64,000 bases of DNA from Minisyncoccota bacterium (GCA_965216295.1 OZ244141.1:429772-493771), one strand, 5' to 3'; shown: positions 1,566 through 56,044, counted from the stretch's first letter. The notes: generated from the sequence alone by a model not told the origin. Numbers and translations are program-made.

Positions 1566-4500
1566 TTATTCGTTCATCCCCTGTTTTTTCTCTAATGATG
1601 CTTCTTTTGCCTTATTCTCTAGTATTTTTTCTCGTATTCCTGCACGAAGTATTTCCATCCGTTCATATTTCTTACTCCCCTTAAATGCACTCCCGATAGG
1701 GACAAGACGACCTAAGATAACATTTTCCTTCAAACCGTCAAGCGTATCACTAGCACCATTAAGTGCTGAGCGTATCAAAACATTCGTTGTGTTTTGGAAT
1801 GATGCCGCAGAAAGGAAGTTGCTTCTCGTTGTAGAAACATTCACTAATCCAGTTACCCGTGGCTCTGCTTTGATAGGATTTTTGCCTTGATTTTCTAATT
1901 TCTCATTGATTGTGAGAAGTTCACTCATTTCAATAATTTCACCTTCAGTAAATGGAGCATCTCCAGGATCTTTGATAATAAAGCGGCTAAACATTTGCCG
2001 AATAATGACTTCAAAGTGTACTGGTGCAATATCAACTCCCTGCAATTCATACACCTTATTCACTTCAGCAAAAATATACTCTTGAACAAATTCTTTGTTT
2101 GTATAGATAAGCAATTTATCAAGATCTGCAGAACCATCGGTAAGGAATTGACCTTTCTTGACGTCTTGCCCTTTTGAAACAATGAGGTATCGATTCTTTG
2201 GGATAAAGTAAGTGGTGTCACGAAGTGGTGTTTTCTTTCCATCGACAGGAATAATAGAAAGCATGTTGCCATCACCTGGTTGTTTTTCAACTTCTCCGAT
2301 AGTACCGTCAATATGTGAAACAATAGCCATCGCTTTAGGAATCTGTTTATCAAAAATCTCTTGAATACGTGGTAGTCCAGCAGTAATATCACCACCAACA
2401 GCAGCAACACCACCAGCGTGGAATGTACGCATAGTAAGCTGCGTTCCTGGTTCACCAATTGACTGTGCCGCAATACAACCAGCTGGCTCACCAATGTCAG
2501 TTAGTGTATCGGTCGCCTTATCATCACCGTAGCATTTGATACACACACCACGAGCAAATCGACATGTAACAGGAGAACGAAGCTTCACGATTTCAATAGT
2601 CTCATCATCTTCAATTTGTTTTGCTTCAGCATGATCAATATACTGATTCTTTTTCACAATAACTCCCTTGTGACCAACAATCTCAGTTGCAGCAAAACGA
2701 CCTTTGACTCGTTGTGCAAATGAAAGCGTTACTCCTGATGGCGTTTTACGGAATAATTGAAAACCTCGAGTTGTTCCACAATCTAATCCTTCAATCACCA
2801 CTTCTTGCGCAACATCAAAGAGTCGTCGTGACAAGTACCCCGCATCAGCAGTTTTCAGTGCCGTATCACTCAATCCTTTACGAGCACCGTACGAGAAGTT
2901 GAAGTATTGGATAGGGTGCAGCCCCCCTTTAATTGATGAAGTAATCGCCTCTTCAACTGGATCACCTTTTGCGGAGTCAACGATACCCAACATACCAACC
3001 AATTTACTCAATGTATTAACGTCACCACGAGCACCAGAGAAAATCATATCACCGATAGGAGAATCATTTGGAATTGCTTCTTTCACCAACACATCAATTT
3101 CACTTTTAATCTGTTGCCATATTTCAATATTTTTACGCTTCCTTTCATCACTAGAGAGCAATCCTTGGTTGTACTGTTCATGTACCTTTTTCGTTTCTTG
3201 GAAACCATACTGAATTCTATCCTTAGCACTCTCTGGAACGAGAAGATCACTCCAGGAAAATGTTGTTCCAGAATCAGTTGCGAAACGGAAACCGAATTGT
3301 TTGATAGCATCAAAATAGATGGTCACCTCATCAAGATTATACTTCTTGACAATCGTCTTGGTAAGATTTTTGAGAGCACTATTAGTCATCTGCTCATTGA
3401 TAAAGGGCATGTCTTTCGGTAGTTTATTGTTAAAGAGAAGACGACCTACCGTTGTTCTCATTTTTTTACCTGCATATGAACCATATTTTGCTTTTTCAGA
3501 AGCAAGGATGATGATGGGAGTACGAATTGTTACCACACCATAGTCATACGCGGTCACTGCTTCATTGATAGAAGTAAAGTAAGGAACGTGCTCACTATCA
3601 GTTTTCTCCTCTGCCGTTGCCCAATAACATCCAAGCACCACATCGTGCTTTGTTGGAGAAACATTAATCTCACCAGAACCAGGTTTAATGATATTCTTTT
3701 TGGATATCATAAATTCACGTGCTTCCATTTGTGCCTCTTCAGAGAGTGGTACATGCACTGCCATCTGGTCACCATCAAAGTCAGCGTTATACGCTTCACA
3801 AACAAGAGGATGTAATTCAATAGCCTTTCCTTCAACCAAAGTTGGTTTGAATGCTTGAATACCTTGGCGGTGAAGTGTTGGCTGACGATTCAAGAGAACG
3901 TACCGATTTTGTATAACTTTCTCAAGTATTTCCCAGACAACATCATTTCTGTCATCAATAATACGGGTGGCGCCACGAATGTTGTGTGCCAACTCTCGTT
4001 CTAAAATCTGAGCGATGATGAACGGACGGAATAACTCTAACGCCATTTCCTTTGGCAATCCACACTCATCAAGCTTTAAGCTTGGGCCAACAACAATCAC
4101 TGAACGACCAGAATAGTCAACACGCTTACCAAGTAAGTTTGCACGGAAGTATCCTTGCTTCCCGCCAAGGTATTCAGAAATTGATTTTAATTGGCGTGAT
4201 TGATTCCTATTAAAACTATTCGCTGTGTTATACCGAATTGAGTTATCAAGCAGTGCATCAACTGACTCTTGCACAAGTCGTTTCTGTGTATCGATAAATA
4301 TTTTTGGTGCTTTGTTCTGTATGAAATTTTTCAAACGTGTGTTTCTAATAATAACAAGACGATACAAGTCATTGACATCTGAACTTGCGTACCGACCTCC
4401 TTCAAGTGACACCAACGGACGAATACCAGGAGGGATAACAGGAAGATGGTTCAGAAACATCCACTCTGGCTGATTACCTGACTGGATAAATGATCGAACA

Positions 4501-5270
4501 AGGACGAGACGTTTCTTTAATTTGTCTGACTGAGCAACGGTTGCTGTTTCAATATGTTTTTCCAAACTCTTCTCTAATTTTTTTAAATCAAGCTTTTTGA
4601 CAGCGTTGTACACTACTTCAGCTCCCTTCTCTGCTGTGAACAATTGAGGAAATTTCTTTGTAAGTATGTAGTACGTTGCCTCATCGATAATACTTCCTTC
4701 ATTAATTGAAGAAAGATGTTTCACTTGACTACGATAAGTACTTTGCAACATTTGTTGTGTTTCTTTTCGTTCTGCTTTTTTCAATTTCTCATCAATCTCT
4801 CCTTTCAGTTGTTTTTCATATACTTTTCTTTGTGCTTCATCAACACTAATCACCAAGTAAGCGGCGTAGTAGACAACTTTTTGCAATGCCTGTGCAGGCA
4901 ATCCCAACAACTGTGCGATACGAGATGGTGTTTTGCGAAGATACCACACATGCGTTACTGGTGTTGCTAGTGATATGTGTCCCATCCGCTCGCGACGAAC
5001 AACCGATCGAGTTATTTCCACCTCACACTTATCACACGTAATTCCCTGATACTGAATCCCTTTGTACTTCCCACAACTACATTGAAAGTCCTGTTCTGGT
5101 CCAAAAATACGTTCACAGAATAATCCGTGACGTTCTGGCTTTTGTGTACGATAATTGATTGTTTCTGGTTTCTGCACCTCACCTTCAGACCATGAGAGAA
5201 CATCATCCGGAGAAGCAAGTGTGAGCTTCATTGAATCAAATCGGTTTGTTTTTTTAATTGTTTTACGCAT
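1566..5270 (-). CDS. rpoC: DNA-directed RNA polymerase subunit beta'
   Basis: 1234-aa ORF with a zinc-binding CxxC N-terminus. The NADFDGD catalytic motif is present (AYNADFDGDQMAVHVP). Lies directly downstream of rpoB. Confidence 0.95.
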   Translation of the reverse strand: MRKTIKKTNRFDSMKLTLASPDDVLSWSEGEVQKPETINYRTQKPERHGLFCERIFGPEQDFQCSCGKYKGIQYQGITCDKCEVEITRSVVRRERMGHISLATPVTHVWYLRKTPSRIAQLLGLPAQALQKVVYYAAYLVISVDEAQRKVYEKQLKGEIDEKLKKAERKETQQMLQSTYRSQVKHLSSINEGSIIDEATYYILTKKFPQLFTAEKGAEVVYNAVKKLDLKKLEKSLEKHIETATVAQSDKLKKRLVLVRSFIQSGNQPEWMFLNHLPVIPPGIRPLVSLEGGRYASSDVNDLYRLVIIRNTRLKNFIQNKAPKIFIDTQKRLVQESVDALLDNSIRYNTANSFNRNQSRQLKSISEYLGGKQGYFRANLLGKRVDYSGRSVIVVGPSLKLDECGLPKEMALELFRPFIIAQILERELAHNIRGATRIIDDRNDVVWEILEKVIQNRYVLLNRQPTLHRQGIQAFKPTLVEGKAIELHPLVCEAYNADFDGDQMAVHVPLSEEAQMEAREFMISKKNIIKPGSGEINVSPTKHDVVLGCYWATAEEKTDSEHVPYFTSINEAVTAYDYGVVTIRTPIIILASEKAKYGSYAGKKMRTTVGRLLFNNKLPKDMPFINEQMTNSALKNLTKTIVKKYNLDEVTIYFDAIKQFGFRFATDSGTTFSWSDLLVPESAKDRIQYGFQETKKVHEQYNQGLLSSDERKRKNIEIWQQIKSEIDVLVKEAIPNDSPIGDMIFSGARGDVNTLSKLVGMLGIVDSAKGDPVEEAITSSIKGGLHPIQYFNFSYGARKGLSDTALKTADAGYLSRRLFDVAQEVVIEGLDCGTTRGFQLFRKTPSGVTLSFAQRVKGRFAATEIVGHKGVIVKKNQYIDHAEAKQIEDDETIEIVKLRSPVTCRFARGVCIKCYGDDKATDTLTDIGEPAGCIAAQSIGEPGTQLTMRTFHAGGVAAVGGDITAGLPRIQEIFDKQIPKAMAIVSHIDGTIGEVEKQPGDGNMLSIIPVDGKKTPLRDTTYFIPKNRYLIVSKGQDVKKGQFLTDGSADLDKLLIYTNKEFVQEYIFAEVNKVYELQGVDIAPVHFEVIIRQMFSRFIIKDPGDAPFTEGEIIEMSELLTINEKLENQGKNPIKAEPRVTGLVNVSTTRSNFLSAASFQNTTNVLIRSALNGASDTLDGLKENVILGRLVPIGSAFKGSKKYERMEILRAGIREKILENKAKEASLEKKQGMNE

Positions 5271-19163: not shown

Positions 19164-19759
19164 ACCTCTGCGTCACGTTTTGCCATCTTTGCAACCTTTG
19201 TTATCCACCGACCTCGCTTTGCCTCTGAAGAACCTCGTGTTGGTCCAAAATGGCACACACGCACCGGTCTTATACCACAGCTTTTTAGGATACCTTTTGC
19301 GAGTTCATTAGTGTATGAACCCATTTTAAAATAGAGAAGGAGGGGGTGTACAGAACCGACAATATTGATAATACGAGCGCTCTTCTTCTTCAACAACGGA
19401 ACAAAGGTATCATCAACAAATTGAAATGCAAATCCAGGAAGAAATGCCCTATCAAAAAGCCCTTTCATTTTTGCAGGCATCGTGCTCCACCAATTTGGGT
19501 AGATAACAACAAAATGGTCTGCCCACTGAATATTTTTTTGAAATTGTATCAAATCTGGTTCTAGTTCTTGAATAACATCGTACCCTTGATGGAGTGTTGG
19601 ATCAAATGTTAACTCATCAATAGTATGTCGTCGTACCTCGGCACCCGCTTCTTTTGCTCCCCGCTCATATGCATCTGCCATACCATATGATAGGGATGAG
19701 TGGACAGGATTACCACACAATATATAAATTTTTTTTCTCTTCACTTCCATATAATGCAC
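19148..19759 (-). CDS. flavodoxin-like NAD(P)H-dependent oxidoreductase (NQO/MdaB-like)
   Basis: KIYILCGNPVHSSLSYGMADAYERGAKEAGAEVRRHTIDEL has the flavodoxin_2 architecture. The likely true start is the second Met (MEVKRKK). Confidence 0.55.
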   Translation of the reverse strand: MHYMEVKRKKIYILCGNPVHSSLSYGMADAYERGAKEAGAEVRRHTIDELTFDPTLHQGYDVIQELEPDLIQFQKNIQWADHFVVIYPNWWSTMPAKMKGLFDRAFLPGFAFQFVDDTFVPLLKKKSARIINIVGSVHPLLLYFKMGSYTNELAKGILKSCGIRPVRVCHFGPTRGSSEAKRGRWITKVAKMAKRDAEVWDFR

Positions 19760-19823
19760 TCACCCTCATTGAAACATCTCTCATCTCATAGGGGAGTATA
19801 TCACACGACCACATAGAAAGGAT

Positions 19824-20321
19824 TTAGGTAAAACGACCATGACAATAGTCAGCCAATTGAAAAAGCGTTACCATCACAACAACTAAAACAATATAGAGAA
19901 GAAGAGTGGCTGGGATGGTGAGAAGACCAATCGTTATAACAGTAGTATTGTATATCGCCAGTGTGTGCCACCCCGCAGCAATAATTGGTGCACCAAATGT
20001 TACAGAAATCATTTTCCGTGACATACAAATGGCAAGAACCATGGCGATAATGATGAGTATTGCTTTCACCGCATACTCTTGGAGTGCTTCTGGCACTGCA
20101 TCAAAAAGACCAAAGATAACTAAATTCACTGCAATGATAACGCCAAGTATGACATGAATAAAACGAAGTATGGAGTACTGTAACTGTATCAACCTATATG
20201 CCAAGCCACTGCTCGGATACCCATACTTTGCTACTAATATATACGAAACCACCGCCATCGTTGAAACACCAAACGCAAGACCGATGAGAATAGTTTCAAT
20301 GAGGGTGAGTGCGGTAATCAT
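19824..20321 (-). CDS. hypothetical polytopic membrane protein
   Basis: 165 aa with about four hydrophobic helices. Confidence 0.4.
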   Translation of the reverse strand: MITALTLIETILIGLAFGVSTMAVVSYILVAKYGYPSSGLAYRLIQLQYSILRFIHVILGVIIAVNLVIFGLFDAVPEALQEYAVKAILIIIAMVLAICMSRKMISVTFGAPIIAAGWHTLAIYNTTVITIGLLTIPATLLLYIVLVVVMVTLFQLADYCHGRFT

Positions 20322-20326
20322 ATTTA

Positions 20327-20596
20327 CTATTTTCGTTGAATTTGCATCGCTAGTGTACGCATCTCTGATTCATACTTTTTCATAACAGCAACACTGGCAA
20401 GGGTTTCATCCTGCCCTTTTCGTTTTTTCATTGCAATTTCTTGTGCAATACGTTCAAAGAGTGCTGGATTCTTTTCAAACATCTTTCGAAAAAGCGTCCG
20501 CTGCTCTTCAGGCATTTTCTTCAATTGCCTTTCAAGTGCTTTTTTAGTGATGAAGTCACGCAGTCCCATGACTGTAGTATATCGTATGATTTCCAC
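20327..20596 (-). CDS. small hypothetical protein (89 aa, charged and helical)
   Basis: ORF packed tightly (6-nt gaps) between the two flanking genes. Confidence 0.35.
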   Translation of the reverse strand: MEIIRYTTVMGLRDFITKKALERQLKKMPEEQRTLFRKMFEKNPALFERIAQEIAMKKRKGQDETLASVAVMKKYESEMRTLAMQIQRK

Positions 20597-21424
20597 CTAA
20601 AGATCTGCTATGAACGTCATGATGGCTTGTTGCACATTGGGAAAGAAAGCAACATCACTGTGTTTTGCTCCATCAATGAGAACATACTGACTGCCAGAGA
20701 TGCTATCGTGAAGTTTTTTTGAGAAATGTGCTGGGATGGTACGATCAGCGGTACCAGCGATGATAAGGGTGGGGCTTTGTACTGTTTCTAAAATGGCAAT
20801 GTTTGATTTATCCTCTTTGAGTAAAGTGGTGATAGGAAGATACCAGTATATGGAACTTGCAACATCAGCAACTGATGAGAGTGGTGAAATGAGAGTAACG
20901 CCAGAGACGGGATTTCTTGTTTGTACCATAGCAGCATGAGTGGATGCAAAGATGGTGCCCAGACTTCTCCCAACAGAAACAACGTCGGTGTATCCGTTGT
21001 GATCAAGCCATGTGATTGTTTTTGTCACATCCCCCACCATGTGTGATAGTGATGGTGATACTGTTGGATCAAGAAAACTTTCATACTCAACGAATATGAG
21101 TGTGTAATCATCAATGGTCAAGAGAGGTATATACCGAGAACGATGACATACATTCCCTGCATTACCGTGATAGTAGACGATGGCTTTCGTTGGTGATTTT
21201 TCACGAACGAACAGAACAGTGCCTTCCAGATTTATTCTCTTGAAATCATGAAACGCTTCACACTGATGTGCTGAATCTTCTGGTATCGCATCTGGATAAA
21301 AGAGGAGATTGTTTTGATTGAAATAAACGTAAGAGAGGATGATGAGATAACCGAGAAAGAGAAAGACGAATACCTGTGTTAGTTTATTAATACCACCACG
21401 AAAGAATTGTTTGATATTACTCAT
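20597..21424 (-). CDS. alpha/beta-hydrolase fold protein
   Basis: HGNAGN oxyanion-region motif and a GRSLG nucleophile elbow. N-terminal TM segment. Confidence 0.65.
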   Translation of the reverse strand: MSNIKQFFRGGINKLTQVFVFLFLGYLIILSYVYFNQNNLLFYPDAIPEDSAHQCEAFHDFKRINLEGTVLFVREKSPTKAIVYYHGNAGNVCHRSRYIPLLTIDDYTLIFVEYESFLDPTVSPSLSHMVGDVTKTITWLDHNGYTDVVSVGRSLGTIFASTHAAMVQTRNPVSGVTLISPLSSVADVASSIYWYLPITTLLKEDKSNIAILETVQSPTLIIAGTADRTIPAHFSKKLHDSISGSQYVLIDGAKHSDVAFFPNVQQAIMTFIADL

Positions 21425-21441
21425 TACTAGTCATACTTAGT

Positions 21442-21512
21442 CGGACCGCCGAGAATCGAACTCGGGCCACACGCACCCCATGCGTGCACACTACCATTAT
21501 GCTACGGTCCGT
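21442..21512 (-). tRNA. tRNA-Pro (anticodon GGG)
   Basis: Minus-strand cloverleaf folded by hand. Acceptor CGGACCG/CGGTCCG. Anticodon stem CACGC/GCGTG with loop AUGGGGU. T-arm CCGAG-UUCGAUU-CUCGG. CCA not encoded. Confidence 0.75.
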
Positions 21513-21570
21513 GTACTTACAACGTACACTGTACTCCGTATACTTTCCAGAATAATGGAAGATTTGAGAT

Positions 21571-22719
21571 TCAGTTGGCTGATGTTCTTGAGTCAGCCAG
21601 CCGAAAGATCAGATGGCTCAGTATAGTTATGGATTCTACCAACTCATCATTAGAGTACATTGTATTTCTAGAATTTTCTGGATGATGAATCTTATTTCTT
21701 ATATATATTGGCAAAATCACGTTATAAGAGATGCCATTATACTGATATTCTTTTGTTCTGAGTTCAGAATCAGCAAGCAATTCTTTAATATGATTTGACG
21801 CCTCTTCCATACCCACGCCAAGATTATGTTTTGTTCCATCCTCTTTATTCCTTATCAATGGAAAAATTTTAGAGAACAGGATTATATGTAACATTTCATC
21901 CTCAACTCCAAACCCAACATGACCCATCTTTACCTCCGTTCTTCCGTTATCTCCCTTATCAAAAGAATATATTTGCGTAGACTCTTCATCGTTCATGTTT
22001 GACCACAAAAAATATGAGTCATGCGTTGACAGTATCACCTGATGCCCATCAGAATTTGCGATTTTTTTTATTGATTTATTTAATATACGTTTAAGTTCAG
22101 GATGTAAAAAAAGTTCTGGTTCTTCAAAAAGAATTAATGTCTCTCTATCATCTTCAGTACCATCTTCAAGTATAGTGTTTTGAATCCTATCAGCATAAAC
22201 CTGTAACAAAGACACTATTAAGAGTCGTTGATATCCCTGCCCTATGCTGTCTAATGATATGTTTTCTCCTTCACTGTCTATATATCCAGTTTTTATATTT
22301 TTTATAAAAGATTTTAGAATTTCTGACTTGTTGATTTGATCAAATTCAATTTTCAAATCTATATTACCTTCTGTTATTGAATTAAACTTAATAGAAACAT
22401 CTTCAAAAACTCTTGTAATAGAGTCTTTTACTCCATCTTCACGAACTAATCTAATGTTCTCACCAATAATGGAAGAGAGGATTTTCATCAAAGAGGCACT
22501 AGTTGAACTCGTTTTAAACATGTCATCGCTCGGATTTACAACATTCGCTTTTATGAAAACAACCTTTATACTATCTTTATATTTTTTTTCAACTGATTCA
22601 AAAAACTTAGTTTTTCCTGTGTTGTTTTTTCCAACGATAACATTTAAATCTTTAAGATTATCTAATTGAAAACCACCAAAAATTGGAGGATTGCTATCTT
22701 CTATCTCTATGTTTTCCAT
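21571..22719 (-). CDS. ABC/AAA_21-type ATPase (SMC/OLD-like ATPase head), defence-associated family
   Basis: Walker A GKNNTGKT, Q/signature-like SIGQGYQ, Walker B LILFEEPELFLHP and H-loop VILSTHD are present. About 110 aa of unassigned C-terminal sequence follow. The gene is AT-rich. Confidence 0.6.
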   Translation of the reverse strand: MENIEIEDSNPPIFGGFQLDNLKDLNVIVGKNNTGKTKFFESVEKKYKDSIKVVFIKANVVNPSDDMFKTSSTSASLMKILSSIIGENIRLVREDGVKDSITRVFEDVSIKFNSITEGNIDLKIEFDQINKSEILKSFIKNIKTGYIDSEGENISLDSIGQGYQRLLIVSLLQVYADRIQNTILEDGTEDDRETLILFEEPELFLHPELKRILNKSIKKIANSDGHQVILSTHDSYFLWSNMNDEESTQIYSFDKGDNGRTEVKMGHVGFGVEDEMLHIILFSKIFPLIRNKEDGTKHNLGVGMEEASNHIKELLADSELRTKEYQYNGISYNVILPIYIRNKIHHPENSRNTMYSNDELVESITILSHLIFRLADSRTSAN

Positions 22720-22968
22720 ATCTTCAATATAACTTTGATCTTTTTTTTAGCAAACATTGTTTCACATTAAAATAAACATATATGAACACAATTCTAGATA
22801 AACTATCTTTAATTGCTTGTCTCATTAGGCAATTATTTACTTAATTCATGTTAGTTGTTAGGAAAATTAATCGTTATAACTTAGAGTAAAGTATTATTGA
22901 AATCTAAATTTCTCTCTATCTATATTTTCACAGCAACATGCAGCTTTACAATAAAATAGATAATTCTT

Positions 22969-24621
22969 TTATTTTTCTTCCTTAGACAGCAAAGCCTTCA
23001 ACCTACCATTTACATTATCAAATACACTTGTTAATCTATTCTTTGCCTCTTCTGTCAAAAGTGCCGTGTGCATAAGTGCATTACGAATCGGTCTATATTC
23101 TTTTGAATCAATTGGTAAATTATTAGTATCTCCAGCTCTATCTGCTATTTTAGCCAGTGCCGTCATATCTAGATATCCCAGATCTGTTTCATTTTTTCTT
23201 AATTCAATATTAATATTACCGTCTTTTTTATTTTTATATTCCACTTTTTTCAATCTATCAATCTCTATCTTATATTCTTTCTTTATGGTTAATTTATTTT
23301 TCTCAACATATTCTCTAAGTAAGTTTTCTAAAATATAACACTTTGAATATGAAGGAAAATTAAACTTTGATTCTTCTCTGAGATTTTCAAGAAAATCTTT
23401 ATACTCCTCATTTGTTGGTTTGTATTTGTATACATTTTGTATAGCATTAAATAATTCAATAGATTTGCGGTGCTCACCTGTCATTCTCTCATTCTCACTA
23501 TCACCATCTTCTCCAACCTCCTCTCTCCACTCATCCCATTCTTTTAAGATTTTAGGAAGTACTTTCTTTTTAAAGTCCTCAGAGAAAGAATCTATATCTT
23601 GAATATCTTTTTTTATATGCTCTCTTCCTGTTCCAAAAGGATCTTCATTGCCTGAATCAATATGGTCAATGTGTATTTGACCATACAAATAACTTTCTAC
23701 TACTCGGGTAGATGTAATTTTACTTAAAAAATTCTTCTCCCGCAACCTACCATTAACAAAAAGATCAACACCAACACGCTCTTCTAAGTTCAAAGCCTTC
23801 AAATATCTTGGCTTTCTTACAGAAGCTATAAATCCCTTAATTCTATCGTCGACAAAAGTTATTTCCCCTCCTTTTTTAATCTCTGTAAATTCAGATAACA
23901 ATCTGTCTTGAAATTTTACAGTCTTCCACACAAACTGTGTATTACTTGTCAAATCTTTAAGATCTTCATAAGATATAATTTTATCATTAACATGTATTTT
24001 AAAATCTCTATCTATCAGTGAAAATCTGAAATATAAAGCAAGTATTTTTCTCAACTGAGATTCCGATGAAAGTCTCGTTCTAAAATTTTTGAAAAAAAAT
24101 ATTGTTCCTTTCTTGTGGTTTTTGATGTATTGATCAAGAGACTTTAAATCAACAGAAGACAGGTTGTATGTTCCATCCCTATCGTATTTATCTTCCCTTG
24201 CTATTTCGTCATCAAGAGCTTTGTTATTTATTACACCTCCAGTGTACTCTGTGAATTCAGTCTTTGATGCAATACTAATTTCCTCTGATACACTCAATAA
24301 GGCTAACTTTCCTATTCCCTTTCTACCTATATACGGGCGTTTCTTTTTAGGTGAATGCGTTACATAGTTGTTATCACTTATTCTTTTTGTATAACCAACT
24401 TTTAGGAATTTGTGTTGAAAATCTTCTTCTGTCATTCCATGTCCATCATCTTTAATAACAAGAGTTTGTCCCTCTTTATCATAATAGATATAAACATTGT
24501 CTGCATCAGCATCCCACGCATTTGATACCGCTTCTCCTATAATTGTAGAAAAATCCCTATACAGACCTCTACCCAAAAGATTAAGTACATTCAGAGCAAT
24601 TTTGAAAAAAAAATTATGCAT
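22969..24621 (-). CDS. GHKL (HATPase_c_3 / MORC-like) ATPase with C-terminal HEPN-like motif
   Basis: N-terminal Bergerat-fold motifs GEAVSNAWDA (N-box) and DDGHGMT/GRKGIGKL (G-boxes). C-terminal EYRPIRNALMHTALL fits HEPN Rx4-6H (RNxxxH). The start ATG overlaps the dcm stop (ATGCATAA). Confidence 0.6.
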   Translation of the reverse strand: MHNFFFKIALNVLNLLGRGLYRDFSTIIGEAVSNAWDADADNVYIYYDKEGQTLVIKDDGHGMTEEDFQHKFLKVGYTKRISDNNYVTHSPKKKRPYIGRKGIGKLALLSVSEEISIASKTEFTEYTGGVINNKALDDEIAREDKYDRDGTYNLSSVDLKSLDQYIKNHKKGTIFFFKNFRTRLSSESQLRKILALYFRFSLIDRDFKIHVNDKIISYEDLKDLTSNTQFVWKTVKFQDRLLSEFTEIKKGGEITFVDDRIKGFIASVRKPRYLKALNLEERVGVDLFVNGRLREKNFLSKITSTRVVESYLYGQIHIDHIDSGNEDPFGTGREHIKKDIQDIDSFSEDFKKKVLPKILKEWDEWREEVGEDGDSENERMTGEHRKSIELFNAIQNVYKYKPTNEEYKDFLENLREESKFNFPSYSKCYILENLLREYVEKNKLTIKKEYKIEIDRLKKVEYKNKKDGNINIELRKNETDLGYLDMTALAKIADRAGDTNNLPIDSKEYRPIRNALMHTALLTEEAKNRLTSVFDNVNGRLKALLSKEEK

Positions 24622-25663
24622 ATGATACCCTAAATGTTTTAATTATTGCTTTACCAACAATCCTACCAAGTTCAACAGGAACCGCATTACCTATATGAAT
24701 ACCAATTTGAGTTTTTGATATGTTATTTATATCTTTGAAGAATCTATATTTTTTAGGAAATGTTTGTAATATTGCCCCTTCTCTAAGAGTAAGTGCCCGA
24801 TTCTGAACGGGATGTCCAAATCTGCCTGTTCCGTATCGATTAAACTGAGTTGTTATGGTTGGGCTTGGTTTATCCCAAGCCATCCTTCCGTATACAGAAC
24901 TGTATGTTGAACCACTATTCTTTTTATGACAATTAACCCTCAATTTCTTTGGCCAATCCCTCCAAGTACCTCCTGGTTTTGAGTATTTTATTCTTTCAAT
25001 ATTTATGAGAGTTAGACTTGGTGCAACATGTAAAGGATCTTTTTTATTTACTCTGCCTGGCAACACTCTTGGTAAGTCAGCAATAACATCTCTTACTGAC
25101 TTTTTTTTGTTATTGGCTTCTGGGATATCAATTTCTCCGATGCGCGAAGCTAATAAAACAAGCCTTCTTCTCTTCTGTGGCATTCCATATTTTGAACAAT
25201 TGATGATTTTGTATTTAACATCATATCCCAATTTTAATAAACTGTTCTTAAAATTTGAAAAAACTTTCTGTTTCTCCAAAAGAGGGACGTTTTCCATCGA
25301 GACTATATCAGGTTTTAGTTCTGATACAAGTCGACTAAACTCTTTTAGCAAACTCCATCTAATATCTTCCTTTAAATTTTTATTTTTTCTAATCTTGATA
25401 CTGTGTGTTGAAAAAGTTTGGCAAGGAGCACACCCAACTAATATTTTCACATCTGCACCTCTATAATATTTTTCAAGATCTTTACCTTTTATATTTTTGA
25501 TATCACTCTCTATAAACTTAGAATCATTATTATCTTCGTATGCAAATTTACATGTCACATCATTATCAATCCCAGCACGAACATCTATTCCAGCTTTAAT
25601 AAGTCCGTGGGTTAAGCCACCAATACCACAAAACAAATCAATTGCAACAAACTTCTTATCCAT
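24614..25663 (-). CDS. dcm: DNA (cytosine-5)-methyltransferase
   Basis: Motif I FCGIGG, motif IV GCAPCQTFS (catalytic PCQ) and motif VI ENV are present. 349 aa. Confidence 0.85.
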   Translation of the reverse strand: MDKKFVAIDLFCGIGGLTHGLIKAGIDVRAGIDNDVTCKFAYEDNNDSKFIESDIKNIKGKDLEKYYRGADVKILVGCAPCQTFSTHSIKIRKNKNLKEDIRWSLLKEFSRLVSELKPDIVSMENVPLLEKQKVFSNFKNSLLKLGYDVKYKIINCSKYGMPQKRRRLVLLASRIGEIDIPEANNKKKSVRDVIADLPRVLPGRVNKKDPLHVAPSLTLINIERIKYSKPGGTWRDWPKKLRVNCHKKNSGSTYSSVYGRMAWDKPSPTITTQFNRYGTGRFGHPVQNRALTLREGAILQTFPKKYRFFKDINNISKTQIGIHIGNAVPVELGRIVGKAIIKTFRVSYA

Positions 25664-25741
25664 AAATGCATTATAACGCTAGAAACATAACACCTCCGCA
25701 ATAGCGCTGACAGACCATAATGTAGTATAATCATTCAGAAA

Positions 25742-25815
25742 GGGCCCGTAGCTCAGTTGGCTAGAGCACCGGTTTTGCACTCCGGAGGTCGCAGGTTCGA
25801 ACCCTGTCGGGTCCA
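25742..25815 (+). tRNA. tRNA-Ala (anticodon TGC)
   Basis: Cloverleaf folded by hand. Acceptor GGGCCCG with the G3:U70 Ala identity pair. Anticodon loop UUUGCAC. T-loop TTCGAAC. No CCA encoded. Confidence 0.85.
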
Positions 25816-25816
25816 C

Positions 25817-26332
25817 ATGAAGGAAAACATCTTTTTGATAGGAATGAGTGGAGTTGGAAAAAGTTACTATGGAAGGAGAATTGCAAAGGAACTTGGCTTC
25901 TTTTTTATAGACACCGACGATTTGTTAGAGAATCAGTACGGTAATAAAGACAAGTTACTTGATACAGGAGAAGAAAATTTCATGAAAGCTGAAGAAAAAA
26001 TACTCCTCTCCATCCCCCAATCTTTAGAGAAAACAATAGTAGCTTCTGGCGGTAGTTGTATCTATACAAACAAAGGTATGGAACATATAAAAAGGTTTAC
26101 AAACATTGTCTATCTCATGAATTCTATAGAGAACATAGCGGGCAATGTTGAATTAAAAAATCGTGGAGTCGTGGGATTAAGTAGATTAAGCCCAAGAGCA
26201 CTCTTAGAAGAAAGAGCAAATCTCTATGAAAAGTATTCTGATTTTCAGATAGACTTACGGGCATTACAACGCAATCAGAAAAAAGAAGAATCACTAATAC
26301 ATCAACACATCGTAAAAATAGTATCGGTATAG
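25817..26332 (+). CDS. aroK: shikimate kinase-like P-loop kinase
   Basis: IFLIGMSGVGKSYYGRRIAKELGFFFIDTDDLLE shows Walker A plus the D(T/S)D motif of shikimate kinases. The first 20 codons of the track ORF (25757) are read-through of the tRNA-Ala gene and are discarded. Confidence 0.55.
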   Translation: MKENIFLIGMSGVGKSYYGRRIAKELGFFFIDTDDLLENQYGNKDKLLDTGEENFMKAEEKILLSIPQSLEKTIVASGGSCIYTNKGMEHIKRFTNIVYLMNSIENIAGNVELKNRGVVGLSRLSPRALLEERANLYEKYSDFQIDLRALQRNQKKEESLIHQHIVKIVSV

Positions 26333-26951
26333 GGAGAGCTCATACAAGAATCAATAACAAGAAAAACCCTCGTACCATGAGGTAGCGAGGGATAAAGTGT
26401 GCTGAGTCAAGGTGGTGTTGAAAACCCTTGCTACATTAAAACGAAACTAAGATTTACATTACAGGATTAGACCAATTCCTACCAACTATGAAAATAAGAA
26501 CATGGTTTACCCGCAAAAACTCAATAAAGTAATAACGTATCCCCCAGCACGAGAGTAATTGTAGCATGAAATATAATATAAAAAAGTAAAAACCCTCGTA
26601 CCACGAGGTAACGAGGGGAAATGTGCTGAGTCAAAGTAAAATCAAGCTCGCTTTATTGAGTTTATGGAACTCGTTTTAAACTTGATTAAGACTTAATGTC
26701 CCAGCACCGAAAAATTATAACATGAGTAGTATAAAAAAGCAAATACCCTCGTACCATGAGGTAACGAGGGATAAGGTGGTGTGCTGGGCCGAAAGCGGAA
26801 ATCATCAAAAATCTCCACTACACTAATAACAAACAAGAAAATAGAATGTAGTATATGTAACCTCTCAGCGCTGTCAAATCATTTGTATAAACCACAATAG
26901 AAAACCACGATAGCATATAATTGATTTAAATAAGACCACTTACACTCCTTC

Positions 26952-27049
26952 GATTGAAAGAATCAATTGTGCCCAACACTCCAAAACGACTATAGCACAA
27001 ATAGTATAAAAAAGCAAATACCCTCGTACCATGAGGTAACGAGGGATAA
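26952..27049. repeat. ~98-bp direct repeat copy A (about 95% identical to 27192-27288)
   Basis: gattgaaagaatcaattgtgcccaacactcca...ccctcgtacca(t/c)gaggtaacgagggataa occurs twice, 240 bp apart. Confidence 0.8.
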
Positions 27050-27191
27050 AGTGGAGTGTTGGGTCAAAGTGAGATTAAAACCTCACTACATTAAAACAAA
27101 ATTAAGCAAATCGAAGTGCGAAATTTAGAGTTCTCTTATAGAAAACCGTAACGGTAAACTACAATAAGATAAGCAGACTCTACATCAATCT

Positions 27192-27288
27192 GATTGAAAG
27201 AATCAATTGTGCCCAACACTCCAATACAACTATAGCACAAATAGTATAAAAAGCAAATACCCTCGTACCACGAGGTAACGAGGGATAA
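27192..27288. repeat. ~98-bp direct repeat copy B
   Basis: Same sequence as 26952-27049 with three substitutions and a 1-nt deletion. Its 3' outer-stem partner is not conserved. Confidence 0.8.
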
Positions 27289-28145
27289 GTGTGCCAGAAC
27301 GTGAGCCCGTCCATTAACTCAACGCATTAAAAACAAAGGTGAACGTTAGTTTTCTGAAACTTATACATTCATTGAATCCTCGAATGATAAGCAACATTTG
27401 GGGTTTGATTCCCTTACCAACACTACCAAGAATCAATGCTTCTGGCACGACGGTGAGTATAGCATATACAACAGGTGTGTGCAAAAGCAAAAAAGAAATA
27501 TCATATCATGGATCAAGAAAGATAATAGAGAGTTGTATAGAAAACCCCCCCCCTGTCGTCAAAAAAAGGGGGGGTGCACTAAGCAAAGTGGATTGTTAAA
27601 CCCATTACATCAAATCAAGGTCAAATCATATAACCAAAGAAACAAGACCTGGTTCCGAGTTGTCAGTAGTTTAAACCTGTATCTTTTTTATTCTAAAATC
27701 TATAACCTTTCCAAGAATCAATGTGCTCAGTACGATAGTTATTGTAGCACAGGAAAAAACAATGTGAAGAATTGTATAAAAAAACCCCTCGCTATATGAT
27801 GAGAAACGAGGGGGTACCGAGCAAAATGGACTCCTGGTTAAAGCCCATTAACATTAAATCAAGATCAGATCAGCTAGCTAAAGAAGAAAAATACGGCTTC
27901 CCTGTTGTCAGTGGGTTGTAGTCAGCAGACTACAGTTTGCCTATATTCTCCTGTTACTCTATAACTCTATAATCTTCCCAAGAATCAATGGCGCTCAGTA
28001 CAATGATTATTGTAACATAGGCAAAAAAAATGAACAAGTCACAATTAATAAAAAAGATGGCCACATAAAGTGGGCGTCAGCACTAATTCTATCATTGTTT
28101 TGCTGTGTTAGAATACACGACAGTTATACAAATAAATAAATAGTA

Positions 28146-28601
28146 ATGAAAAATGTAAAAACGATTGTCCTACTCTTTCTTGCCATCGTTATTATCGGCG
28201 TTATTTATGTAGTGACGAAAGAAGATACTAATTACATCGTGCCAGCAACTGAAATAGAAGATGTTGATGTTGCATTAGATTCTGTAGAAAGTGGCTCATA
28301 CATCGCATACACCGATGATGCAGCAAAAGCGGCAGCAACAGAAGGTTCAGCCGTTCTCTTCTTTTATGCATCATGGTGCCCAAGTTGTCGTTTGTTAGAT
28401 AGTAATATTCAATCAAAACTGAAAAACCTACCATCAGAGATTACCATACTCAAGGTTAACTACGACACGCAGGACGATTTGAAAAAGAAGTATAAAATAC
28501 GACGACAGCACACACTCGTTCAGGTTGATGCTTCCCTCAATCAAATTAAGAGCTGGTTTGGGTCTCGTAACATAGCAGACATTGTTGCACAAGTACAGTA
28601 A
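28146..28601 (+). CDS. thioredoxin-fold thiol:disulfide oxidoreductase, membrane-anchored (WCPSC active site)
   Basis: N-terminal TM, then FFYASWCPSCRLLD, a CxxC thioredoxin-like motif. Confidence 0.7.
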   Translation: MKNVKTIVLLFLAIVIIGVIYVVTKEDTNYIVPATEIEDVDVALDSVESGSYIAYTDDAAKAAATEGSAVLFFYASWCPSCRLLDSNIQSKLKNLPSEITILKVNYDTQDDLKKKYKIRRQHTLVQVDASLNQIKSWFGSRNIADIVAQVQ

Positions 28602-28609
28602 ACGAAAAT

Positions 28610-29329
28610 ATGGAATCACTCCTTTTTGCGTCATTTGTTGCCGGGTTTCTCACTGTCCTTGCACCATGCCTTCTACCCCTTCTGCCAGTTGTCATCGGTG
28701 GAAGTTTAGTTGGTGGTAACAAAAGGAATCCATATATTATTATCGGTTCACTCCTCTTATCGGTTGTCCTCTTCACACTTATCATTGAAGGGCTTTCACT
28801 ACTCTTCTATATACCGCCATATATCTGGAGTTATATTGCAGCAACTCTCGTCTTACTCGTCGGTCTCTCGTTCCTTGCTCCATCGCTTTGGACAAACCTA
28901 CCTTTTATACGAAAACTTGCTAACAAATCTAACACGACACTAGGGAAAGGTACACAACGAAAAGGAATTCTTGGTGATGTGACAATCGGTGCTTCACTAG
29001 GTCCTGCTTTCTCTTCGTGCAGTCCAACATTTCTCATTATCCTTGCCATCGTACTACCAAGAGGATTTTTTGAAGGATTACTCTACCTCATCGTGTATGC
29101 CCTTGGGTTGGGTGTTGTCCTTCTCTTTATTGCCCTTCTCGGACAAAAAGCAATAGAGAAGTTGAATATTTTTGCAGATGGAGGCGGGTGGTTCAAAAAA
29201 ATCATGGGTATCATCATGATTATCATTGCTATTATGATTTACGCTGGTTTTGATAAGACAGTTGGTTCTCTTCTATTAGACATTGGTCTCTTTGATACAA
29301 CACAACTTGAGTTGATGGTACAACCGTAG
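28610..29329 (+). CDS. ccdA: cytochrome c biogenesis / DsbD-type transmembrane electron transporter CcdA
   Basis: Polytopic membrane protein with the FLTVLAPCLLPLLP conserved-Cys helix. A second Cys lies in FSSCSPTFL. Paired with the upstream thioredoxin-like gene. Confidence 0.65.
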   Translation: MESLLFASFVAGFLTVLAPCLLPLLPVVIGGSLVGGNKRNPYIIIGSLLLSVVLFTLIIEGLSLLFYIPPYIWSYIAATLVLLVGLSFLAPSLWTNLPFIRKLANKSNTTLGKGTQRKGILGDVTIGASLGPAFSSCSPTFLIILAIVLPRGFFEGLLYLIVYALGLGVVLLFIALLGQKAIEKLNIFADGGGWFKKIMGIIMIIIAIMIYAGFDKTVGSLLLDIGLFDTTQLELMVQP

Positions 29330-29379
29330 AAGTAATAGATTTCTAGAGAAACTCTGTAAACGTGTGATATTCTGCAGGT

Positions 29380-30234
29380 ATGGATATTCATAAAAAGGTG
29401 CTTTTGGGGGCTGTAGCACTCACCATCACCATCCTTCTTCTTCTTGGATTTATCTATATTATCATCAGTGACGATACGTTTGAACCAGGAGGAAGTAAGA
29501 TCAATAAAGAACCGCTTAATATTGATATCACAGGAAACATCCGTAGTGGTGATATCACTCCCGAACTAACAAAAGAGACTGACGAAACAAAAACACCACC
29601 AGCAACACTCACTATCCGTGAAACCATCTCACCTTTTGATGAAGTTGAGACAGCGGAGATTCTTGACACACTACCTGATGGACAAGTAGCGTATCGTGTT
29701 TGGTACAACGCCTCATGGAGCAAGGAGACTCATCCCGACTGGTTCCCCCTAGGAGCCCACCTCTCACCAATGGTTGCTTGGACACAGGTACGAAAAAACA
29801 CCATCTTTACCATTGGTAAAAAAGCCAGTGCTGGTATGGAAGAGATGGCAGAGACAGGTGCGCCCATAGCACTCACCGAAGAGTTAGATCGTCTCCGCAA
29901 AGATAAGTTGCTTGTGGACTATGCCATCGGTTCACTCATTAATGCCCCTGGCTCTGACGAAGTAGTCATTACTGCCTCACAGGCAGCATCAATAGTATCA
30001 GTGGTGAGTATGGTTGCACCCTCCCCTGATTGGTTTATCACCGCTCATAATATACCTCTCTATGAAAATGGTGAGTGGAAAGATTTCATTGAAGTTCACG
30101 CAACACTCTATGACGCTGGAACCGATGAAGGAAAAAAGTTTCGATCGTTGAATAAAGATAGTGAGGATGTTATTAAACTGTATCGGTCAGATCTTCCACC
30201 AATCGCATCGTTCTACTTCATCCGCGTAAAATAG
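29380..30234 (+). CDS. secreted/anchored Spondin_N-like domain protein
   Basis: N-terminal TM. YRVWYNASWSKETHPDWFPLGAHLSPMVAWTQ resembles the WS-ETHP...AHfSP core of the spondin N-terminal domain. Confidence 0.4.
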   Translation: MDIHKKVLLGAVALTITILLLLGFIYIIISDDTFEPGGSKINKEPLNIDITGNIRSGDITPELTKETDETKTPPATLTIRETISPFDEVETAEILDTLPDGQVAYRVWYNASWSKETHPDWFPLGAHLSPMVAWTQVRKNTIFTIGKKASAGMEEMAETGAPIALTEELDRLRKDKLLVDYAIGSLINAPGSDEVVITASQAASIVSVVSMVAPSPDWFITAHNIPLYENGEWKDFIEVHATLYDAGTDEGKKFRSLNKDSEDVIKLYRSDLPPIASFYFIRVK

Positions 30235-55521: not shown

Positions 55522-56044
55522 ATAGAGTAAGTGGTCGAAAGTACTCCTGACCGTCTTGCCAAGAAAGGCGGTAATACCCTTCTTCCTTTTCTGGATCATG
55601 AAGATACCACGCAGAAGGTGTCTGAGAAGAACCACTCTCATAACCAACAAGAACCAAGAGGTGTGTTCCTTGACGTGGTGGTCTATGTCGCACAGAGATA
55701 ATCACAGGAACACCAGTTGCTATCATTGTAGTCACCTTCTCTACCATTTCATCGCTCACCGAAGTAAAATCTTCTGCATAGCCAAAACAATTATGCGCAT
55801 GTGCAAGTGCCACCAACTGTTGGTGACGCCAGCCAACATTCTCTCTATACCCTTCTCTCTGCAATCCCTCTTCAATGAGTGCATCGGGTGTTGGTGTGTT
55901 TGTTTTTTGCCAGTACTGTATAACCATAGCAAGGGCGGTGATACCACAGGCACGAGACTGCCATTTTGAATTAGTCACATCACGGTACTGACAGAGATGT
56001 GGAACCCCTTGTATGATGTGCTGTTTTGCTATCTGACCTCCCAT
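55502..56044 (-). CDS. papain-fold cysteine peptidase, C39-like domain protein
   Basis: SNSKWQSRACGITALAMVIQYW carries the candidate catalytic Cys. A downstream His lies in HLLVLVGYE. The start overlaps the pheT stop by 16 nt. Confidence 0.45.
   Translation of the reverse strand: MGGQIAKQHIIQGVPHLCQYRDVTNSKWQSRACGITALAMVIQYWQKTNTPTPDALIEEGLQREGYRENVGWRHQQLVALAHAHNCFGYAEDFTSVSDEMVEKVTTMIATGVPVIISVRHRPPRQGTHLLVLVGYESGSSQTPSAWYLHDPEKEEGYYRLSWQDGQEYFRPLTLFIYGRM

Follow-up and report, generated by a model that had tools for sequence, protein, structure and literature searches.

Tandem clusters of sibling small RNAs (sRNAs) are known from several bacteria, among them LhrC1-4 of Listeria, PrrF1/2 of Pseudomonas, the NsiR1 repeats of Nostoc and Qrr of Vibrio. 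Neisseria NgncR_162/163 (PMC9973317) and the multicopy sRNAs of Bacteroides (PMC11697453) belong to the same class. We analyzed a stretch of 64,000 nt from a Minisyncoccota bacterium (GCA_965216295.1 OZ244141.1:429772-493771, referred to as the window), in which a region of ~1.8 kb, 26333-28145, lies between a shikimate-kinase-like gene (aroK, 25817-26332, plus strand) and a thioredoxin-like gene (trx, 28146-28601, plus strand). This region is probably a row of seven paralogous small non-coding RNA genes, each transcribed on its own from the minus strand, in the chromosome of a Kaiserbacteria-like, ultra-small and uncultured member of the Patescibacteria (Candidate Phyla Radiation, CPR). The narrower claim, that the minus strand carries structured RNA genes with the fold described below, is very likely. 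As in sibling sRNA clusters, the paralogous small-RNA genes are adjacent, were probably duplicated locally and each have their own promoter and Rho-independent terminator, so that the hallmark of such clusters (at least two paralogous genes with individual promoters and terminators) is present as a sequence-level prediction. The array differs from these clusters in the larger size of its RNAs (125-250 nt), in a stem between the 5' and 3' ends that closes a three-way junction, in conserving a paired core rather than an exposed seed, in arm lengths that vary greatly, and in having seven copies in a genome of probably <1 Mb. The best-supported description is a new paralogous small-RNA family without an Rfam counterpart, the general kind, tandem sibling small-RNA genes, being already known.

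On the minus strand, seven units of the same orientation, A to G, can be recognized from 28040 down to 26359. Only one extended -10 element, TGnTA[TC]A[ACG]T, is found per unit, 6-7 nt before the first base of P1, the helix that joins the two ends of the RNA. The predicted start of every unit is a G, which is also the first base of this helix, and a GC hairpin with a U-rich tract stands at the end of every unit. The predicted RNAs of units A-G are ~125-250 nt long, each ending in an intrinsic terminator. In four units a -35 element, TTGCTT, sits within the U-tract of the preceding terminator. The pattern TGNTAYANTN7G has 12 matches in 64 kb (5.1 expected), six of them inside the 1.7-kb array; in unit F the spacing from -10 to start is shorter by one base than in this pattern. 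A preliminary description of the region had proposed several small minus-strand transcription units, with which the predicted promoter and terminator of each unit agree, and the terminator-like U-tract that it reported after the inner hairpins on this strand was seen at all of them. The hairpin CCCTCGyTACCTCrTGGTACGAGGG (25 nt) occurs in five copies (0 expected); two further GC hairpins make up the rest. The modules are diverged direct repeats, 60-97% identical, with hairpins spaced by 153-285 bp; the earlier estimate of seven to eight diverged modules was right as to repeats and spacing, the exact count being seven intact units and two fragments. The features are as follows, P3 being a short hairpin described below.

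27776-28040, minus strand: unit A, promoter, predicted ~226-nt RNA and terminator; extended -10 TGTTACAAT at 28009-28017, predicted start G 28001; P1 5' strand 27992-28001 pairing with 3' strand 27814-27823; P3 27825-27849; terminator stem 27785-27813, U-tract 27776-27784.
27539-27772, minus strand: unit B, promoter, predicted ~195-nt RNA and terminator; -35 TTCACA, spacer of 16 nt, extended -10 TGCTACAAT at 27741-27749, predicted start G 27733; P1 27724-27733 pairing with 27576-27585 (GUACUGAGCA/UGCUUAGUGC); P3 27589-27604; terminator C7...G9, 27545-27574.
27246-27485, minus strand: unit C, promoter, predicted ~200-nt RNA and terminator; extended -10 TGCTATACT at 27456-27464, predicted start G 27448; P1 27440-27448 pairing with 27291-27299 (GUGCCAGAA/UUCUGGCAC), C being the unit that tells apart the two pairing models considered below; P3 27302-27321; terminator 27260-27284.
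27007-27257, minus strand: unit D, promoter, predicted ~214-nt RNA and terminator; -35 TTGCTT within the U-tract of the unit C terminator, extended -10 TGCTATAGT at 27229-27237, predicted start G 27222; P1 27212-27222 pairing with 27053-27063 (GGAGUGUUGGG/CCCAACACUCC); P3 27068-27087; terminator 27021-27045.
26732-27018, minus strand: unit E, promoter, predicted ~249-nt RNA and terminator; extended -10 TGCTATAGT at 26989-26997, predicted start G 26982; P1 26971-26982 with 26778-26789, 11 of 12 pairs and one A·A; P3 26794-26819; terminator 26746-26770.
26579-26743, minus strand: unit F, promoter, predicted ~127-nt RNA and terminator, a short variant without P3; extended -10 TGTTATAAT at 26714-26722, predicted start G 26707; P1 26700-26707 pairing with 26623-26630 (GUGCUGGG/CUCAGCAC); terminator 26593-26617.
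26359-26590, minus strand: unit G, promoter, predicted ~192-nt RNA and terminator; extended -10 TGCTACAAT at 26558-26566, predicted start G 26550; P1 26543-26550 pairing with 26399-26406; P3 26408-26430; terminator 26367-26391.
26339-26355, minus strand: remnant of the 5' core motif (ATTGATTCTT...), just downstream of the unit G terminator and abutting the aroK stop codon.
28047-28086, minus strand: probable 3'-end remnant (TTAGTGC...) with a weak hairpin, GCCCAC/GTGGCC, and a T-tract, upstream of the unit A promoter.

The 5' fragment at 26339-26355 has neither a promoter nor P1 and may be a truncated eighth unit. The fragment at 28047-28086 resembles the P1 3' strand and terminator of unit B, which would make it the remnant of a unit 3' end.

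In the minimum free energy (MFE) structures of all seven units, a stem between the 5' and 3' ends closes the RNA and the terminator follows directly. This stem, P1, comprises 8-12 bp and joins the first 8-12 nt of the RNA with bases 0-7 nt before its own terminator. It closes a three-way junction that holds a long, variable and irregular arm, P2, containing 94-136 nt of variable sequence, and P3, a hairpin of 5-10 bp just before the P1 3' strand, which is missing in unit F. The most conserved part of the RNA is the base of P2, where 5'-CAUUGAUUCUU faces UUrAUG-3' in a helix that includes G·U and U·U oppositions. Six exact copies of the 10-mer ATTGATTCTT exist in the window, the sixth being that of the 5' fragment at 26339-26355, and all are in the array and on the minus strand. 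Without their terminators, the unit bodies gave minus-strand folding z-scores of -2.5 to -5.7 relative to dinucleotide shuffles (unit A -5.4, unit F -5.7), and the plus-strand values for units A, B, E and G were ~0.

Which strands pair with each other was decided by comparing the ends of each unit with the sequences on either side of the hairpins. The preliminary description had placed each GC hairpin inside a longer outer stem, and each module would then be a single element, either a proliferated element or a two-stem RNA. The flanks of four of the six internal hairpins are indeed complementary (E/D -22.6, F/E -17.4, G/F -14.7 and B/A -15.3 kcal/mol). However, pairing across the hairpin fails at B/C (-7.5 kcal/mol) and C/D (-8.2 kcal/mol), whereas unit C's own ends pair at -16.4 kcal/mol, and an outer stem of this kind would also contain a promoter. 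Within-unit pairing energies of P1 range from -14.6 to -22.6 kcal/mol over all seven units. Summed over the same six units, pairing across the hairpin yields -85.7 kcal/mol versus -103.4 for cognate pairing, and among the 5040 possible permutations the within-unit assignment is the global energy minimum, with ties only for swaps between near-identical neighbours. The impression of nesting comes from neighbouring units that have a P1 sequence class in common (A/B, D/E and F/G). The supposed outer stem is the 3' end of one RNA beside the 5' end of the next, and we regard the nested-stem arrangement, and with it a proliferated structured element, as highly improbable.

Cognate pairing within each unit is also reflected in the way the stems vary. 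In a hand alignment of the core, standard pairs occupy 150 of 151 cells (99.3%), and 17 of 30 pairs are changed on both sides (nine of 12 in P1 and seven of 10 in P3). None of 500 shuffles matched the observed pairing values, and slid registers pair at 33-42%. G·U pairs make up 25 of the 151 paired cells (17%), and the opposite strand would pair in only 82.8%. Since one paired cell in six is G·U, the strand is fixed and selection on RNA is indicated, as the preliminary description had argued. The pair-preserving variation that it had noted is real; however, it belongs to P1 within each RNA and not to a stem enclosing the hairpin. Variation in the terminator hairpins themselves is trivial because any terminator stem is self-complementary. 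The informative covariation is that of P1 and P3, the latter overlooked in the preliminary description. A second strain, L007 (ENA ERZ25071281), is 99.5% identical to the window and carries the same array. In the structured part of unit A the two differ at three places, a G·U to G-C change in P3, a 3-nt insertion in a loop, and a G-C to G·U change in P2.

The strand bias of the pairing bears on the view that the array is a DNA-level repeat, such as a miniature inverted-repeat transposable element (MITE) with terminal inverted repeats, a set of integron attC-like sites, or repetitive extragenic palindrome (REP)-like sequences, that multiplied locally. Short inverted repeats do bound each unit, and the copies stand in tandem in a variable region. 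However, the inverted repeats vary and yet stay complementary, whereas sites of transposases and integrases are conserved in sequence, and in DNA, as on the other strand, the 25 G·U pairs among 151 would not match. Moreover, the inverted repeats do not include the promoter and terminator, which keep a fixed register. Protein domains were assessed by Pfam scans or precomputed Pfam matches for essentially all window ORFs (open reading frames) of at least 150 aa. No gene for a Cas, Nop/Tas, IS110, TnpB/IscB, reverse transcriptase (RT), transposase, integrase or TROVE protein was found in the 64 kb. Similar DNA was absent from the rest of the window and from plasmid and phage collections; BLAST searches of phages and plasmids and two pattern scans of viral contigs returned zero matches to the array. 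MITE, attC and REP assignments were rejected on the covarying inverted repeats, the 17% G·U, the lack of an enzyme and the confinement of copies to the array, and a DNA-level origin of the pattern has very little probability.

A coding function was considered likewise. The ORF search of 26333-28145 agreed with the preliminary description that no credible ORF lies between aroK and trx. The one gene called in the array of strain L007 (11568-12107, 179 aa, no Pfam match) is broken in the window by -2 and +1 indels, a 2-nt deletion and a 1-nt insertion, and because these indels shift the frame it is not a conserved gene. No ORF of at least 40 aa lies inside any single unit, the existing ORFs running across terminators, and no small ORF conserved across the array units was found. 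Short ATG ORFs of 5-13 aa, identified by eye, have no Shine-Dalgarno sequence and are not common to different units. Messenger RNAs of type I toxins commonly pair their 5' with their 3' ends and are found as tandem repeats. Decayed or tiny coding cassettes for small peptides, similar to Sib/Ibs-type toxin-antitoxin systems, could show the same closing stem as an mRNA feature, and an RNA island of a related genome, described below, holds an uncalled 109-aa membrane ORF with promoter and terminator of the same style. Against this, covariation runs across P1 and P3 with no conserved reading frame, and no ORF is confined to a unit or common to units. Sib/Ibs- and Ldr-like type I systems, in which each repeat has a small hydrophobic ORF and an antisense RNA overlapping it, were rejected for the latter reason, and we give peptide or toxin cassettes the least credence of all readings considered.

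Arrays of structured units with variable stems are also known from guide RNA systems. TIGR (tandem interspaced guide RNA) arrays occur in CPR genomes and have "variable but consistently palindromic" stems (PMC12045711), which the present array resembles in host, in its tandem units and in stems that vary in sequence yet remain complementary. A guide array of the TIGR-Tas type, found in phages as well as CPR bacteria, or of a new kind, with a constant scaffold and target-recognising variable segments, would further agree with the constant core and highly variable arms of the units, and with their position in a variable hotspot beside a strain-specific restriction-modification island. However, TIGR units measure ~36 nt, or are single stem-loops carrying two 8-12-nt spacers between box C/D motifs, and are cut from one precursor encoded beside a Nop-domain Tas gene (PMC12045711), whereas the units of the array are 125-250 nt long, are predicted to be individually promoted and terminated, and have no box C/D-like motif pair around 8-12-nt spacers. 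The window holds none of the proteins of such systems (Nop/Tas, Cas, IS110, TnpB/IscB or RT), and zero matches of the array were found in the phage and plasmid collections. TIGR-Tas was rejected because no window ORF has a Nop domain and because unit size and transcription differ; a guide array of any kind is very unlikely. A CRISPR (clustered regularly interspaced short palindromic repeats) array, taken as near-identical direct repeats of 23-50 nt with regular spacing and unique spacers, usually with cas genes, was likewise rejected, in accordance with the preliminary description, since the spacing is irregular (153-285 bp), the modules are only 60-97% identical and no Cas domain occurs in the 64 kb.

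A comparison with Rfam release 15, which the preliminary description had proposed, gave no family match in the array. At gathering thresholds only four tRNAs passed in the whole window, and up to E = 10 the best match in the array had E = 0.36 (18.8 bits versus a threshold of 75 bits). 6S RNA and bacterial Y RNAs of the YrlA type share with the units a stem between the 5' and 3' ends, a structured body and plausible protein binding. In contrast to 6S RNA, the array RNAs have no large 5' central bubble; 6S RNA (RF00013), which has a long closing stem, a large central bubble whose 5' strand is unpaired, and a terminal stem, was rejected on 0-3 unpaired nucleotides on the 5' side of the junction and no match up to E = 10. 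YrlA-like Y RNA, which has a tRNA-like module and whose gene lies near rsr, was rejected since neither an Rsr/TROVE protein in the window nor a Y RNA or tRNA-like match was found. 6S and Y RNAs usually occur in one or two copies and Y RNAs in up to about four; the seven copies of the array are far above this number. Retron RNA (a1/a2 repeats with an RT) was rejected because the window has no RT domain, and hammerhead-type ribozymes because the junction strands are too short and no Rfam match exists.

Relatives of the array were sought by several routes. Proteins encoded in the neighbourhood assign the organism to the Patescibacteria. The nearest MurE homologues are 45-49% identical, some of them named Candidatus Kaiserbacteria, and for the proteins of this lineage no database relative was found between ~50% and 99% identity. 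A scan of a genome collection with the adjacent aroK returned only kinases 27-40% identical, from Firmicutes and Chloroflexi; the best aroK homologues, self excluded, were 40-46% identical (Pseudobutyrivibrio, Methanococcoides), so no relatives were available for comparison. In the contigs of trx homologues, the array was absent upstream of trx. The sole match of a metagenome scan with the A/B core motif was a chance hit inside a 580-aa ORF of an unrelated contig (L013). A covariance model (R1) built from the N-padded core alignment found no unit but the short F, also when filters were switched off, because the variable P2 insert of 94-136 nt defeats the model. Since protein identity to the nearest genomes is only 45-49%, no orthologous arrays were obtained.

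If the predicted elements operate as they appear, RNA polymerase with a sigma-70-type factor would start at the extended -10 TGnTAYAnT, in four units assisted by a TTGCTT -35 within the preceding U-tract, and the transcript would begin at the G that is the first base of P1. The RNA would then fold into the three-way junction of P1, the long P2 arm with its conserved U·U-rich base, and P3 (except in F), and the intrinsic terminator would free a compact molecule of ~125-250 nt with both ends buried in structure. The cluster probably expanded through unequal recombination, for which the terminator-promoter junctions, being highly conserved, would have served as sites, after which the bodies would have diverged with the fold under selection. 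The folded core may bind a partner, a protein or another molecule, that is common to the units; copy number would then provide dosage and the variable arms diversification.

For the function of the RNAs, two possibilities were weighed. The conserved part is the folded junction core and not a single-stranded seed, which favours a partner-binding role and makes base-pairing sRNAs the second choice. That the RNAs act through the folded core as a platform for a binding partner is therefore our tentative preference, although a possibility rather than a probability. Alternatively, the same seven genes could encode trans-acting sibling sRNAs of the Qrr or LhrC type that base-pair with their targets through the seed AUUGAUUCUU. 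Tandem genes with individual promoters and terminators fit this class, the 10-mer AUUGAUUCUU is kept in five otherwise differing units, and in the MFE structures of D and E the UUCUU of the motif is located in a hairpin loop. However, the motif is predicted to be paired in units A, B and C, and no standout complementary site was found in the 64 kb, a weak negative as only ~6-12% of the genome was searched. Base-pairing sibling sRNAs thus seem rather doubtful.

Several points weigh against seven independently transcribed, partner-binding RNA genes. Sequence geometry is the basis on which promoters, start sites and termination were predicted. The core alignment was made by hand and fitted to the structure, then passed through MAFFT as N-padded rows without change, and it comprises seven paralogues only, with about four independent P1 classes. 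In units D and E the conserved motif can form a local hairpin instead of P2a in the MFE structure, and P2a is therefore not secure in all copies. No orthologue of the array beyond this species (two strains) was found in these searches. Duplex prediction against 51 translation-initiation regions gave no enrichment, with ~6-12% of the genome covered, no antisense match of >12 nt to the array occurs within the window, and neither a target nor a seed nor a partner protein for the RNAs was identified in the 64 kb.

RNAs of comparable architecture were found in one related genome. A crude detector combining a -10 box, a closing stem and a terminator was applied to ~150 kb from seven related genomes; many false positives occurred at k = 8 and only two units, both on a 724-kb contig (L015), were convincing. 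They lie in a 2.3-kb stretch without gene calls between uvrA and uvrC (2893-5181, minus strand), which is absent from L017 and L020 and is thus an insertion relative to neighbouring genomes. On the minus strand this stretch contains two tandem structured RNAs of ~450 and ~480 nt (~4797-4345 and 4105-3618). Their promoters, TTGTAT-17-TATAGT and TGCTATAAT, are of a strong sigma-70 type, with an extended -10 in one of the two. The predicted starts fall at, or 2-3 nt upstream of, a closing stem of 12-13 bp (GGAGAUGGGAAG/CUUCCUGUCUCC and AGAAGAUGGGAAG/CUUCCCAUCUUCU), and the terminator follows directly. Folding z-scores were -6.5 and -5.3; of the folded stretches, one begins inside the closing stem and the other starts one base before it. 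The two copies show compensatory differences at 14 pairs. Rfam gave no match up to E = 10, on which ground an identity as RNase P RNA was rejected. The pair resembles the array in promoter, closing stem, directly following terminator, tandem paralogy and lack of an Rfam match. It differs in that the RNAs are twice as long, number two copies and occupy a different locus, and no sequence similarity to the window units was detectable. In the MurE neighbourhoods of five other relatives the detector found nothing comparable. The pair hints that such RNA cassettes may recur in the clade.

Other features were observed in the same RNA island. A remnant of a P1 3' strand with terminator lies at ~2960-2915. 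The uncalled 109-aa ORF (L015:3085-3414, minus strand), a predicted membrane protein, has its own terminator and a promoter, TTGACA-17-TGcTATCAT, whose region is partly duplicated (122-nt repeat, 3506-3627 and 4144-4265). In another related contig, L016:15816-16031 (minus strand) has no gene calls and combines a promoter-like site, a possible hydrophobic peptide of 27 aa (MNSADYIALLFVTTFFLLVVFCLSPFF) and a strong terminator; a small gene for a membrane peptide may have been missed here.

As a whole, the window is of housekeeping character: it encodes RpoB/C, many aminoacyl-tRNA synthetases, UvrABC, RNase H and DprA. From the Spondin_N gene to flavodoxin/YchF the distance is 9.6 kb (19759-29380), versus ~1.1 kb in the syntenic L020 (13220-14297). 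The array therefore lies in a variable hotspot of gene gain. This interval holds ccdA, trx, the array, aroK, tRNA-Ala, a strain-specific island, tRNA-Pro and a hydrolase. The island, 4.2 kb of low GC content (29-34%) at 21529-25696 between tRNA-Pro and tRNA-Ala, is absent from L007 and encodes an OLD/AriA/GajA-like AAA_15 ATPase, a C5 cytosine methyltransferase and a type II restriction-enzyme-like protein with an HATPase_c_3 domain. The shikimate kinase (25817-26332) has no close homologue in Patescibacteria and its start codon abuts the 3' end of tRNA-Ala, which suggests that it was acquired horizontally into the hotspot. The Spondin_N domain is best known from animal extracellular matrix; here a protein with this domain (29380-30234; also in L015, L017, L019 and L020) is conserved beside murE in the clade. 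At 56029-58410, phenylalanyl-tRNA synthetase beta carries an NlpC/P60 peptidase domain (residues 351-414) between B3_4 and B5, an unusual fusion.

The array and the pair between uvrA and uvrC could belong together as CPR-specific RNA-only gene islands, that is, autonomous cassettes of promoter, closed-stem RNA and terminator inserting into or expanding at variable hotspots. We consider this broader idea improbable; if true, the cores would be, for example, scaffolds, assemblies or effectors of episymbiosis rather than ordinary regulators, and the function would be new to bacteria. The non-coding RNAs of CPR/Patescibacteria are almost unexplored, and the family is a concrete candidate for a new RNA class, since it has no Rfam counterpart and its fold (P1, P2a and P3) and exact predicted ends can be tested. 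Because the sigma-70-like promoters should work in Escherichia coli, the RNAs can be made and probed despite the uncultured host. In genomes that are tiny and tightly packed, a commitment of 1.8 kb to seven structure-constrained RNAs with strong promoters implies that their role is important.

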